Source of the DNA: a virus
Lineage: Duplodnaviria; Heunggongvirae; Uroviricota; Caudoviricetes
Reading direction: 5' to 3' (one strand)
Virus record (IMG/VR): IMGVR_UViG_3300029721_000076
DNA length: 4,723 nucleotides
The position numbers and the translations under genes are program-made. The number at the start of each line of letters is the position of its first letter. The stretch's first letter is position 1. The notes below the pieces were generated by a model, which worked only from the letters and a program-made list of their open reading frames with translations, did no database searches and was not told the DNA's origin. Below are positions 1-4,723 of this stretch, in pieces.

Positions 1-135
1 CGGACTTCGGGGGAAAAACGAGTATTTTTAGTCATCCTGTTTACCTCTTTCTCAGGAAGTTTAGTCTCCAGGATTCCCGGGGCGGTTCAGTATGGCGAGA
101 ACGCAGGTTATCTGGCTGAAAGAGGGGGTAATTAA
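1..135 (+). CDS. 3' end of upstream nin-region ORF (partial, product unknown)
   Basis: Frame 1 is open from the window edge to TAA at 133-135 (…GSLVSRIPGAVQYGENAGYLAERGGN*), ending 3 nt before the rusA GTG. GAGGGGG at 122-128 would serve as the rusA RBS. An alternative 16-codon frame-2 ORF (ATG 92 to TGA 140-142, [16 protein letters not shown]) overlaps the rusA start as GTGA, so the true frame is ambiguous. Confidence 0.3.
   Translation, partial: RTSGEKRVFLVILFTSFSGSLVSRIPGAVQYGENAGYLAERGGN
65..90. repeat. Left copy of a 26-nt imperfect inverted repeat (partner 4644-4669)
   Basis: TCTCCAGGATTCCCGGGGCGGTTCAG here versus the reverse complement of 4644-4669, TCTCCAGGAAACCCGGGGCGGTTCAG: 24 of 26 identical. 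Confidence 0.7.
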
Positions 136-138
136 GGC

Positions 139-501
139 GTGAATACTTACCACATCACACTACCCTGGCCGCCGAGCAATAACCGCTACTACCGCCATAA
201 TCGAGGGCGCACGCACATCAGCGCAGAAGGGCAGGCATACCGCGATAACGTCGCCCGAATCATTAAAGGCTCAATGCTGGATATCGGTCTGGCTATGCCT
301 GTGAAAATCCGCATTGAGTGCCACATGCCGGATCGCCGTCGCCGTGACCTGGATAATCTACAAAAAGCCTCTTTTGACGCACTCACCAAAGCAGGTTTCT
401 GGCTGGATGATGCTCAGGTCGTTGATTACCGCGTTGTGAAGATGCCTGTTACCAAAGGTGGGAGGCTGGAACTGACCATCACCGAAATGGGGAATGAATG
501 A
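139..501 (+). CDS. rusA: Crossover junction endodeoxyribonuclease RusA (Holliday junction resolvase)
   Basis: 120-aa [29 protein letters not shown]…[11 protein letters not shown], recognised as the RusA family of lambdoid prophage DLP12. GTG start at 139 preceded by GAGGGGG; stop TGA at 499-501. Confidence 0.92.
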
Positions 502-638
502 TGTTTGAGTTTTATATGGCAGAACTTCTTCGCCACCGCTGGGGGCATCTGCGCTTATATCGTTTCCCCGGTTCTGTTTTGACCGATTACCGAATACTGA
601 AGAATTACGCCAAAACCCTGACAGGAGCAGGAGTATGA
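498..638 (+). CDS. ylcG: Small DLP12-type prophage protein YlcG (46 aa)
   Basis: ORF not in the supplied track (below its length cutoff). ATGATG at 498-503 overlaps the rusA stop (ATGA). Translation [46 protein letters not shown], stop TGA at 636-638. Position between rusA and Q matches the known ylcG locus. Confidence 0.5.
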
Positions 639-723
639 AGTCAGAGATAACAATCAACTAATACTGTTTTGTTGATTTTTGCTTGTAATTGGCGTTCTGG
701 TCTGATTTTTGTGGAGTAAGTTG

Positions 724-1107
724 ATGCGTGATATTCAGATGGTTCTTGAGCGTTGGGGAGCGTGGGCGGCTAATAATCATGAAGATGTGACCTGGTCGTC
801 CATTGCCGCCGGTTTTAAGGGATTAATTCCTTCAAAAGTAAAATCTCGCCCGCAATGTTGTGACGATGACGCTATGATCATTTGCGGGTGCATGGCCCGT
901 CTGAAAAAGAACAACAGCGATTTGCACGATTTATTAGTAGATTATTATGTAGTCGGTATGACATTCATGTCACTGGCAGGTAAGCATTGCTGCTCTGATG
1001 GTTATATCGGGAAAAGGTTACAGAAGGCTGAGGGCATAATTGAAGGGATGTTAATGGCATTAGATATCCAGTTAGAGATGGATATCGTTGTTAATAACTC
1101 TAATTAA
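724..1107 (+). CDS. quuD: Late-gene antiterminator Q (phage 82-type)
   Basis: [27 protein letters not shown]…[14 protein letters not shown] (127 aa from ATG 724), recognised as 82-type Q / QuuD. GGAG at 713-716 lies 7 nt upstream of ATG 724. The track's 709 start is a TTG and less likely. Stop TAA at 1105-1107. Confidence 0.9.
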
Positions 1108-1124
1108 TATGCCAATTGTTTACT

Positions 1125-1158
1125 AAAAATTATTAAAAATGGGGCGTTGAGACGCCCC
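1125..1158 (-). terminator. Candidate intrinsic terminator for the nmpC transcript
   Basis: Stem GGGGCG (1141-1146) / CGCCCC (1153-1158) with 6-nt loop. On the minus strand it is followed by ATTTTTAATAATTTTT (complement of 1125-1140). About 140 nt downstream of the nmpC stop. Confidence 0.4.
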
Positions 1159-1246
1159 CAAAAATAAAGGGTAATATATAACAGAAGGTTTATATAGTTA
1201 GAAGCAAGGTTGTGCTTCTAAAGGAAGTGGCTTGAGGGAGCCACTT

Positions 1247-1288
1247 ATATGTTGGGGAGGCAACGCCTCCCGCAACATATCTTTTTCG
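1247..1288 (+). terminator. Candidate intrinsic terminator downstream of Q (possible tR'-like)
   Basis: Long imperfect hairpin: 1247-1260 pairs with 1266-1280 (about 14 bp, one bulged G, 5-nt loop caacg, GC-rich core GGGGAGG/CCTCCC), followed immediately by CTTTTTCG at 1281-1288 on the + strand. No U-tract on the minus strand. Confidence 0.55.
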
Positions 1289-1296
1289 TAATCAGA

Positions 1297-2379
1297 TTAG
1301 AACTGGTAAACCAGACCTACAGCGACGATGTCGTCGGTATCAATATCAGCTGTTTTGGTAAACTTACTATCGTCAATTAAGTTGATTTTGTAATCAACAA
1401 AAGTGGACATGTTTTTATTAAAGTAGTAAGTAGCACCGACATCGACATACTTGACTAAGTCTCGGTCACCATGAACACCAAGGTCTTTACCTTTTGACTG
1501 AAGGTAAGCAACAGATGGGCGCAGACCGAAGTCAAACTGATATTGTGCTACTGCTTCAAAGTTTTGTGCTTTGTTTGCAATATGGTTATTACCAAAAACG
1601 GTCATATTCTGAGTTTCAGAATATGTGGTAGCCAGATAGATATTGTTCGCATCATATTTCAGGCCTGCAGCCCATACTTCCGCATTTTTGCCGGAGGCAT
1701 TGAATTTGCTCTTACCATAGGCGACCTGACCGTCAGTGCGATCTGATTTAGCATAGGTTGCACCCACGCCGAATCCTTCATACTCATAAGTAGTGGAGAA
1801 ACCGAAACCATCACCATTGGCTTCAGTTACGTCAGTGCGGTCATTTTTACCCTGATACTGAGCAGCAAAGTTCAGGCCATCGACCAGACCAAAGAAGTCG
1901 TTGTTACGATAAGTTGCAACACCAGTAGTGCGACCAGTCATGAACACATCTGTTTGGGTCCAGGTATCACCACCGAATTCTGGCAGAACGTCAGTCCACG
2001 CACCGATGTCGTATGCTACACCGTAGTTACGGCCGTAATCGATTGAGCCGTAATCACCAAATTTCAGGCCTGCAAATGCAAGACGGGTTTTGTCTTTGGA
2101 AGAACCTTGAGATTCAGCGCGGTTGCCTTTGAATTCATATTCCCACTGACCGAAACCAGTCAGTTGATCGTTGATTTGGGTTTCACCTTTGAAGCCAAGA
2201 CGGGCATAAGTAGTATCACCATCATCTGCATCATTAGAGGAGAAGTAGTGCTTAGCATTAACTTTCCCGTACAGATCCAGCTTGTTACTGTCTTTATTAT
2301 AAATTTCAGCTGCCTGAGCAGACATCGCCATCAGTACTGATGCAGCTACAGCAGAAATTGCCACTGTTAATTTTTTCAT
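1297..2379 (-). CDS. nmpC: General outer-membrane porin, NmpC/OmpD family (OmpC/OmpF/PhoE superfamily), apparently intact
   Basis: 360-aa product [23 protein letters not shown]|[17 protein letters not shown]… ending …[12 protein letters not shown]. It has a typical signal peptide, the classic porin N-terminus and a C-terminal Phe. Start ATG at 2379 (complement of CAT 2377-2379) with AAAGGG upstream. The track's longer 380-aa start adds an unlikely 20-aa extension before the signal peptide. Confidence 0.92.
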
Positions 2380-2470
2380 CGTGAGCCCTTTTTTTGAACT
2401 ATTATTAAAAAATGATGTCACTGCGCGATAAATATTCATCTAATCAATGTGATTATTTCAAGATGTAAGT
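2380..2470 (-). promoter_or_regulatory. Putative nmpC 5' UTR / promoter region with candidate CRP half-site
   Basis: AT-rich sequence directly upstream of the nmpC ATG. It contains AATGTGAT (TGTGA at 2449-2453), matching one CRP half-site; the second half-site is weak. No unambiguous -10/-35 pair could be fixed by eye. Confidence 0.3.
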
Positions 2471-2658
2471 TTTGGTTTCTCGTTTGATTTGTGAAGTAGA
2501 TCTCTATTTTTATCTGAACTTTTTTCTATCGAATCCTATTCATGGCTCTTGGCTGAATAAAAATAAATCTATTAGCCAATTTATATTAATGGCTGTTATT
2601 TATAAGTGCTCTATAATTTGAAGGTTTAATTTAAATCGGCTAAAAATAACGCTGGAAA

Positions 2659-2680
2659 TTATTTGTTGGTTATTTGTTGA
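2659..2680. repeat. Tandem direct repeat of an 11-mer (TTATTTGTTGG / TTATTTGTTGA)
   Basis: Two adjacent copies, 10/11 identical, inside the AT-rich ORF-free region. Confidence 0.6.
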
Positions 2681-2806
2681 GATTTGCTTATGTATTTGTA
2701 GTGGTGTTTTCAATACTCGGTAGCATTCTCGCAAATATCATTTAGTGGTTTACGTACGTAAAAAATTGGTTATGCTGTTAAGAGTGGTTACTTCGTCACA
2801 CAGCTT

Positions 2807-2840
2807 AAACCCGCCGTCGAGCGGGTTTTTCCATTTTTTG
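2807..2840 (+). terminator. Candidate intrinsic terminator upstream of the lysis cassette
   Basis: Stem AAACCCGC (2807-2814) / GCGGGTTT (2821-2828) with loop CGTCGA, followed by TTCCATTTTTTG (2829-2840). The minus-strand side has no U-tract. No + strand CDS lies upstream of it. Confidence 0.5.
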
Positions 2841-2951
2841 AGTCTCGATATTAGCTGATAACCCAATACCTGAGTTATTCACTGACTCCGAGTCTGTTAC
2901 GTTTCGTAGTATTCCCTCAATTTACACCCGCTTTGTCTGCGAGGTGGGGTT

Positions 2952-3167
2952 ATGAAATCCATGGATAAGTTAACAACGGGTGTCGCCTATGGCACCTCAG
3001 CAGGTAGTGCCGGGTACTGGTTTTTACAGCTGCTAGATAAAGTCACGCCCTCACAGTGGGCGGCAATTGGAGTGCTGGGTAGCCTGGTATTTGGCCTGCT
3101 GACGTACCTGACAAACCTTTATTTCAAGATTAAAGAAGATAAGCGCAAGGCTGCGAGAGGTGAATAA
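2952..3167 (+). CDS. essD: Class II holin (pinholin, phage 21 S-type) with dual-start motif
   Basis: 71-aa [34 protein letters not shown]…[13 protein letters not shown]. Met1 and Met4 (ATG 2952 and 2961) form the S21 antiholin/holin dual-start pattern. Two hydrophobic segments are present. RBS GAGGTGG at 2941-2947. Confidence 0.9.
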
Positions 3168-3664
3168 TGCCTCCATCATTACGAAAAGCCGTTGCTGCTG
3201 CTATTGGTGGCGGAGCAATTGCTATAGCATCAGTGTTAATTACTGGCCCAAGTGGTAACGATGGTCTGGAAGGTGTCAGCTACATACCATACAAAGATAT
3301 TGTTGGTGTATGGACTGTATGTCACGGGCATACAGGAAAAGACATCATGCTCGGTAAAACGTATACCAAAGCAGAATGCAAAGCACTCTTGAATAAAGAC
3401 CTTGCCACTGTCGCCAGACAAATTAACCCGTACATCAAAGTCGATATACCGGAAACAACGCGCGGCGCTCTTTACTCATTCGTTTACAACGTGGGTGCTG
3501 GCAATTTCAGAACATCGACGCTTCTTCGCAAAATAAACCAGGGCGATATCAAAGGCGCATGTGATCAGCTACGTCGCTGGACATATGCTGGCGGTAAGCA
3601 ATGGAAAGGTCTCATGACTCGTCGTGAGATTGAGCGTGAAATCTGTTTGTGGGGTCAGCAATGA
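3167..3664 (+). CDS. rrrD: SAR endolysin (phage 21 R-type lysozyme with N-terminal signal-arrest-release domain)
   Basis: 165-aa [42 protein letters not shown]… with a Gly/Ala-rich weakly hydrophobic N-terminal segment and a lysozyme-like body. The start overlaps the holin stop (TAATG). Confidence 0.92.
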
Positions 3665-4122
3665 ACAGAGTAACCGCGATTATCTCCGCTCTGGTTATCT
3701 GCATCATCGTCTGCCTGTCATGGGCTGTTAATCATTACCGTGATAACGCCATTACCTACAAAGCCCAGCGCGACAAAAATGCCAGAGAACTGAAGCTGGC
3801 GAACGCGGCAATTACTGACATGCAGATGCGTCAGCGTGATGTTGCTGCGCTCGATGCAAAATACACGAAGGAGTTAGCTGATGCGAAAGCTGAAAATGAT
3901 GCTCTGCGTGATGATGTTGCCGCTGGTCGTCGTCGGTTGCACATCAAAGCAGTCTGTCAGTCAGTGCGTGAAGCCACCACCGCCTCCGGCGTGGATAATG
4001 CAGCCTCCCCCCGACTGGCAGACACCGCTGAACGGGATTATTTCACCCTCAGAGAGAGGCTGATCACTATGCAAAAACAACTGGAAGGAACCCAGAAGTA
4101 TATTAATGAGCAGTGCAGATAG
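3661..4122 (+). CDS. rzpD: Rz-type inner-membrane spanin (i-spanin)
   Basis: 153-aa product from ATG 3661 ([23 protein letters not shown]…KYINEQCR) with an N-terminal transmembrane segment followed by a charged, helix-prone region. The start overlaps the endolysin stop (ATGA). The track's 3649 start is a non-ATG extension. Confidence 0.88.
3881..4063 (+). CDS. rzoD: Rz1-type outer-membrane lipoprotein spanin (o-spanin), embedded in rzpD
   Basis: 60-aa ORF wholly inside rzpD in another frame: [20 protein letters not shown]|TSKQ… with a lipobox (VVGC) and proline-rich mature part (PPPPPAW…PPPDW), the hallmark of Rz1. Confidence 0.85.
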
Positions 4123-4153
4123 AGCTGCCCATATCGATGGGCAACTCATGCAA

Positions 4154-4447
4154 TTATTGTGAGCAATACACACGCGCTTCCAGCGGAGTATAAATGCCTA
4201 AAGTAATAAAACCGAGAAATCCATTTACGAATGTTTGCTGGGTTTCTGTTTTAACAACATTTTCTGCGCCGCCACAAATTTTGGCTGCATCAACAGTTTT
4301 CTCCTGTCCAATTCCCGAAACGAAGAAATGATGGGTGATGGTTTCCTTTGGTGTTACTGCTGTCGGTTTGTTTCCAACAGTAAACGTCTGTTGAGCACAT
4401 CCTGTAATAAGCATTGCCAGAGCGGCAGAAAACAACATTTTTTTCAT
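4154..4447 (-). CDS. borD: Bor family lipoprotein (serum-resistance protein, Iss homologue)
   Basis: 97-aa product from ATG 4447: MKKMLFSAALAMLITGC|AQQTFTVGNKP…EARVYCSQ with a lipoprotein signal peptide and lipobox LITGC. AGGA RBS upstream on the minus strand. The track's 113-aa version is an unlikely upstream extension. Confidence 0.9.
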   Translation of the reverse strand: MKKMLFSAALAMLITGCAQQTFTVGNKPTAVTPKETITHHFFVSGIGQEKTVDAAKICGGAENVVKTETQQTFVNGFLGFITLGIYTPLEARVYCSQ

Positions 4448-4563
4448 CTTATTATCCTGCATTGTTAAAAACGGCAGAATCCTATGTGACAACAATTAAA
4501 CGATAGTTAAATGGATTGATGAAAATTAAAACTATATAGGTGGATGCTCAGCCTATTGGAGGA

Positions 4564-4571
4564 GGGGGGGG
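4564..4571. repeat. Homopolymeric G8 tract (C8 on minus strand) in the borD upstream intergenic region
   Basis: GGAGGGGGGGGCAC read directly from the sequence; lies between the right-edge ORF stop and the borD start. Confidence 0.85.
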
Positions 4572-4604
4572 CACTCAGAATCCTGTGGAATGAAATAAAC
4601 CGCT

Positions 4605-4723
4605 CTATCTGTCCATTACCCTTTTAGCTGCGCTGTATCGTCGCTGAACCGCCCCGGGTTTCCTGGAGAGTATTTTATCTGTGAACTCAGGCTGCCAGAT
4701 CATCGTTTCCGATGGAAGCATAA
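4605..4723 (-). CDS. Partial ORF at right edge (ybcV-position gene, product unknown)
   Basis: This is the only minus-strand frame open at the edge: …MLPSETMIWQPEFTDKILSRKPGAVQRRYSAAKRVMDR*, stop TAG (complement of 4605-4607). The ATG at 4721 may be internal, so the gene probably continues beyond the window. Confidence 0.3.
   Translation of the reverse strand, partial: MLPSETMIWQPEFTDKILSRKPGAVQRRYSAAKRVMDR
4644..4669. repeat. Right copy of the 26-nt imperfect inverted repeat (partner 65-90)
   Basis: Reverse complement matches 65-90 at 24/26 positions; similarity decays outside the core. Confidence 0.7.

Follow-up and report, generated by a model that had tools for sequence, protein, structure and literature searches.

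Insertion-sequence ends around a lambdoid prophage segment

The stretch analyzed here (the window, 4,723 nt) carries a DLP12/phage-82-like prophage segment flanked on either side by the end of an insertion sequence (IS), and its features are collected in Table 1. Over its whole length, the segment is colinear with E. coli VR50 at 99.96% identity (2 mismatches in 4555 nt). The VR50 counterpart runs from inside an intact 291-nt ybcO to the spacer between bor/iss and ylcI. Window and VR50 differ at position 829, inside quuD (C in the window, A in VR50), and at position 2627, in the porin-essD intergenic region (T in the window, C in VR50). The Holliday-junction resolvase gene rusA is intact, and its product matches the Pfam RusA family (PF05866) with 77.7 bits against a cut-off of 22.8 (E = 1.5e-21, residues 9-114 of 120). 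The phage 82 record X92588 annotates rus at equivalent coordinates, together with a ribosome-binding site.

Table 1. Features of the window, with coordinates in window positions (minus-strand features are written from high to low where read as genes or codons); the genes from ylcG to bor/iss follow the gene list of the segment and its Pfam assignments.
Feature	Position	Strand	Remarks
IRL end of IS629/IS1203-type, IS3-family insertion sequence	1-89	-	element runs on past the left window edge
Frame-1 open frame	1-135	+	not a gene; antisense to the IS orfA start and IRL, then out-of-frame ybcO
IS orfA start, left IS copy	ATG 35-33	-	first 11 codons MTKNTRFSPEV
Ribosome-binding site of IS orfA	49-44	-	AAGAGG
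IRL, 25-bp terminal inverted repeat	65-89		outermost base 89; minus strand TGAACCGCCCCGGGAATCCTGGAGA
ybcO 3' remnant (phage 82 orf96, DUF1364/PF07102)	90-142	+	nt 239-291 of 291
DLP12/phage-82-like prophage segment between the IS ends	90-4644	+	4555 nt
rusA ribosome-binding site	about 120-128	+	AGAGGGGG, inside the retained ybcO remnant
rusA, Holliday-junction resolvase gene	139-501	+	intact; GTG start overlaps the ybcO stop
ylcG	498-638	+	
quuD (Q antiterminator)	721-1107	+	
porin	2379-1297	-	
essD	2952-3167	+	
rrrD	3167-3664	+	
rzpD	3661-4122	+	
bor/iss	4447-4154	-	
IRR end, same IS type	4645-4723	-	orientation as left copy; element runs on past the right window edge
IRR terminal repeat	4645-4669		right IS copy
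orfB stop codon, right IS copy	4689-4687	-	

Several further elements of the segment deserve mention in their own right. An intact porin gene of the OmpC/NmpC type, encoding 360 aa, separates the Q antiterminator gene from the lysis cassette; a longer porin ORF starts at ATG 2439, which is probably not the true start. The porin copy of DLP12 in K-12 (nmpC) is interrupted by IS5. Embedded in the +1 frame of rzpD is a 60-aa ORF (3881-4063, plus strand) with LVVVGC as a lipoprotein-like signal and a tail rich in proline; it would fit the Rz1/RzoD spanin component, and PF06085 (Rz1) is called at the equivalent place in locus L007. A GGAGGGGGGGG tract (4561-4571), identical in VR50, occupies part of the spacer that separates bor/iss from the right IS. 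Between quuD and the convergent porin gene, GC-rich, hairpin-like palindromes occur at 1140-1160 (GGGGCGTTGAGACGCCCC) and 1225-1275 (GGGAGGCAACGCCTCCC); these are probably terminators, and they lie beyond the part of the window scanned for such signals (1-720, see below). An Rfam scan of the whole window returned no family at threshold.

Sequence comparison identifies positions 1-89 as the outermost 89 nt of an IS629/IS1203-type element in antisense. BLAST against fetched loci gives 100% identity to the ends of full 1310-bp IS copies (L003, L001), and the 1310-bp copies in E. coli DLI.6n and GF66.2 are annotated as 'IS3 family transposase, programmed frameshift'. Compared with a copy annotated as 'IS3 family IS629' in the phage record LC567828 (1310 bp, target site duplication TAA), 88 of the 89 positions agree, the sole difference being synonymous (CCC/CCT); both OrfA and OrfB of that copy have NCBIfam transpos_IS3 matches. 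The window itself holds only 89 + 79 nt of IS sequence, and the length of 1310 bp and the transpos_IS3 matches are those of elements elsewhere with identical ends. IS629, which is the same element as IS1203 and IS1203v, is an IS3-family insertion sequence that is 1310 bp long and common in E. coli O157:H7 as well as in other E. coli and Shigella. Its imperfect 25-bp terminal repeats beginning TGAACCGCCCC, its OrfA N-terminus and the position of its orfB stop, 43-45 nt from the IRR end, are all found in the window as well. Read on the minus strand, 1-89 consists of the terminal repeat and ribosome-binding site, TGAACCGCCCCGGGAATCCTGGAGACTAAACTTCCTGAGAAAGAGGTAAACAGG, and then ATG ACT AAA AAT ACT CGT and onward; orfA of the left IS copy reads away from rusA.

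At the right edge, positions 4645-4723 are identical to an IS of VR50 over all 79 nt (L004 1278-1200) and match the annotated IS629 of LC567828 at 78 of 79 positions. When positioned by the VR50 genes, this copy sits in the intergenic spacer between bor/iss and ylcI (window 4642-4645; L004 8555). About 114 complete E. coli genomes, O26 and O103 strains among them, carry an IS1203-type copy ~100 nt further along the same spacer, which appears to be a repeated IS target.

The two ends also bear on the inverted repeat of the window. A repeat search of the window pairs arms of 42 nt (49-90 and 4644-4685) that are 79% complementary, and within them 23 of the 25 positions of the IRL (65-89) match the IRR (4645-4669). 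A rough estimate with equiprobable bases puts the probability that 4.7 kb contains such a 23/25 inverted match by chance at the order of 1e-5. The repeats belong to two different IS copies, which are directly oriented, with an IRL end on the left and an IRR end on the right; the 'inverted repeat' is evidently the IRL of one copy paired with the IRR of the other. The left copy of the repeat, placed at 65-90 in the preliminary description, is thus real and corresponds to the IRL, but its true extent is 65-89: bases 90 and 4644 are flanking bases outside the terminal repeats, complementary by coincidence. The triplets flanking the IS ends are GTA (90-92) and CGC (4642-4644). As a whole, the window looks like a short-read contig broken in repeats and bounded by the same IS on both sides, and these bounding repeats would explain why it stops where it does. 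The layout would fit equally well a circle made of one IS and the 4555-bp segment.

The left junction in ybcO

In the alignments, the window switches from IS to ybcO at ...GGTTCA/GTATGGCG, base 90 (G) being already part of ybcO. Within the 291-nt gene, the breakpoint falls after nt 238 and splits codon 80 (...GCGCTGGAAG/GTATGGCG), which leaves a remnant of 53 nt made up of two bases of that codon, all of codons 81-96 and the stop codon TGA. The orf96-rus region of phage 82 (X92588) is 100% identical to the window over 90-150. A megablast of window 1-300 against 5,426 complete E. coli genomes found thousands of ybcO-rusA loci matching 90-300, many of them at 100%, and no ybcO-rusA locus that extends to the left of base 90. 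The ybcO-rusA regions of DLP12 and phage 82 are colinear with window 90-501 and identical or near-identical to it, down to the annotated ribosome-binding site and the GTGA in which stop and start overlap. The difference lies in ybcO: the intact gene of VR50, IAI1 and phage 82 is colinear with the window from base 90 onward, but its first 238 nt are replaced in the window by the IS end.

The coordinates given in the preliminary description hold throughout at base level. Frame 2 (2-142) is interrupted by stops at 29-31 and 62-64; from ATG 92 to TGA 140-142 it encodes a 16-residue peptide, and this last stop overlaps the rusA GTG at 139 (GTGA). The possibility raised there, that the neighboring gene of reference prophages ends with this peptide, is borne out: YbcO of VR50, YbcO of IAI1 and phage 82 orf96 all have precisely these 16 residues at their C-terminus. 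Since the peptide is identical to the YbcO C-terminus, frame 2 is the genuine frame. Likewise, the breakpoint near 65-91, to be sought by alignment to ybcO-rusA loci, is present at 89/90, and no reference shares the frame-1 C-terminus colinearly.

The intact YbcO protein is 100% identical to PDB 3G27, and in VR50 it matches PF07102 over residues 3-93. YbcO has been classed as a His-Me finger nuclease fold (PMC5714182). The complete PF07102 domain (~92 residues) is absent from the window, where only residues 81-96 and two bases of codon 80 are left; residues 1-79, including most of the Pfam YbcO domain, have given way to the IS end. What remains is a gene fragment rather than a PF07102 member protein. 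Neither the start codon nor the catalytic His-Me finger part is still joined to the remaining codons, which makes ybcO a pseudogene fragment here.

Origin of the junction and its bearing on rusA

Taken together, positions 1-89 are almost certainly the IRL end of an IS629/IS1203-type element lying in ybcO, 49 nt upstream of rusA, and the junction likely arose by ordinary transposition. The most likely event would be copy-out/paste-in transposition of IS629 into ybcO. Under such a simple insertion, the far side of the IS, which the window does not reach, would hold the rest of ybcO with a 3-bp target duplication (GTA), and there ...GCGCTGGAAGGTA, from that 5' portion of ybcO, would adjoin the IRR of this copy.

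In searches for the junctions, the megablast of window 1-300 and 4560-4723 against the 5,426 complete E. coli genomes yielded two-piece matches only, with the IS elsewhere, and a megablast of window 30-150 against phages and plasmids gave only half-matches. By exact search, a 32-mer across 89/90 is absent from species-representative genomes and metagenome contigs, and a 20-mer across the left junction and a 21-mer across the right one are absent from viral contigs. Because neither junction occurs in the collections searched, both IS insertion sites are strain-specific, as is usual for IS629; sites unique between strains are the norm for this element (PMC9943667).

The same IS type is found at other positions of related prophages. 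GF66.2 (L001 4333-6284) carries it in ybcO with the breakpoint after nt 96 and with the orientation seen in the window. On the far side of that IS stands a truncated integrase beside tRNA-Arg, an arrangement that indicates an IS-associated deletion of the whole early prophage region. The ybcO insertion of GF66.2 and PSS-11 (NZ_CP172145, NZ_AP027694) shares with that of the window the IS type (100% over the 89-nt end), the gene and the orientation; its breakpoint, after nt 96 and not nt 238, marks it as an independent event, with a large deletion. In long contigs with the exact porin (L008-L013, L016), this prophage has IS3-family insertions in ren, close to ybcN and in the ylcG-quuD spacer, and YbcO is intact in every one of them that reaches that far. 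The region as a whole is rich in this IS type. Some of these IS copies are annotated as split or truncated transposase ORFs.

The GF66.2 case is what makes a deletion a realistic alternative to simple insertion, given that its IS in ybcO abuts a truncated integrase and the early region has been lost. Either an IS-associated deletion, IEE-promoted or by transposase-mediated adjacent deletion, or recombination between two IS629 copies could have produced the same left junction, and IS629 is known for adjacent deletions of up to >40 kb (PMC9943667, PMC9330008). That complete E. coli genomes, species-representative genomes and metagenome contigs do not show this junction together with a matching partner points the same way. 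However, the window itself gives no reason to assume a deletion, the whole nin region is retained in its closest relatives, VR50 and the exact-porin loci, and simple insertion is the default outcome of transposition. A deletion or recombination is therefore possible but the less probable origin; were it true, the source genome would lack the first 238 nt of ybcO together with further parts of the prophage.

A separate question is whether the insertion activates rusA through an outward or hybrid promoter 49 nt from its GTG. In E. coli K-12, rusA is quiescent and is switched on by upstream insertions of IS2 or IS10 (PMC1636454), and the rus-1 (IS2) and rus-2 (IS10) alleles, like the window, have an IS shortly upstream of rusA in a DLP12-type prophage (PMC1636454). 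The insertion is indeed very close to rusA, and both the gene and its annotated ribosome-binding site are intact. A second, independent IS of the same type lies in ybcO in the same orientation (GF66.2), but this shared orientation was selected by the query itself and is hence no evidence of a bias. The IS type also differs from those of rus-1 and rus-2, and here it is the IRL that faces rusA, with the transposase reading away. IS3-family elements carry an outward -35 in the IRR and an inward -10 in the IRL (PMC9330008), so that the end facing rusA has the inward -10 and not the outward -35. Moreover, a crude consensus scan of 1-720, in which 89 nt of the IS are visible, found no sigma-70-like promoter or terminator on either strand. 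Activation of rusA by the IS thus appears unlikely. It is more likely that the IS would separate rusA-ylcG-quuD from upstream nin-region transcription, and rusA is most likely at least as silent as it would be in a cryptic prophage without the interruption. The proximity to rusA is only a mildly interesting angle, to which orientation and sequence lend no support as activation.

A still broader reading would treat the two directly oriented IS629-type elements, together with the intervening 4.5 kb (rusA, Q antiterminator, porin, lysis cassette and bor/iss), as a unit, either a composite transposon or a segment looped out by IS-IS recombination, and/or the ybcO IS as a naturally selected activator of rusA in the manner of rus-1 and rus-2; it is improbable. 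It is very improbable, too, that the junction is a chimera, formed when assembly attached the IS end to a wrong flank. Both window ends do stop in the same repeat family, as is typical of short-read contigs, and the junction is unique among the collections searched; against this, the switch falls exactly at the last terminal-repeat base at both ends, as in true insertions and unlike mis-joins, and unique IS629 sites are normal between strains (PMC9943667).

Reading frames beside rusA and the meaning of the locus

The preliminary description had left open whether the two frames ending at the rusA start reflect a frameshift or a rearrangement of the neighboring gene. The rearrangement stands, in that there is a breakpoint and colinearity begins exactly at base 90; the frameshift does not. 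A small indel in ybcO, with frame 1 upstream joining frame 2 downstream, could draw only on the two frames being open or partly open beside the rusA start, and it is refuted by the alignments of the window to ybcO loci and IS copies: bases 1-89 are 100% IS sequence with no ybcO homology 5' of base 90, and the frame-1 translation is unlike YbcO residues 35-79.

Nor is frame 1 a real gene with an alternative C-terminus. As described, it has no stop from base 1 until TAA 133-135 and offers 44 open codons from the window edge, yet none of its codons over the whole of 1-135 is ATG, GTG or TTG. The full-length IS copy of L003, whose end is identical, has TGA as the codon just before the base that aligns with window position 1. 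Frame 1 looks open because the window begins one codon after a stop, and its openness is evidently a window-edge artefact. The frame runs antisense to the start of IS orfA and crosses the terminal repeat, and exact-product look-ups gave no record for its product or for a 30-aa minus-strand ORF (61-153) that spans the junction. Without a start codon and with the upstream TGA, the frame-1 gene is refuted for practical purposes.

For annotation, 1-89 should be given as an IS629/IS1203 end and 90-142 as a ybcO pseudogene fragment, with no gene called in frame 1. The identification of the IS also accounts for the inverted repeat of the window. The type of event, disruption of a gene of a cryptic lambdoid (DLP12/82-like) prophage by IS629/IS1203, is already known, and many gene inactivations and deletions in E. 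coli are due to IS629 (PMC9943667, PMC9330008). The value of the finding lies mainly in annotation, and the locus represents one more case of IS629-driven decay of a cryptic lambdoid prophage.
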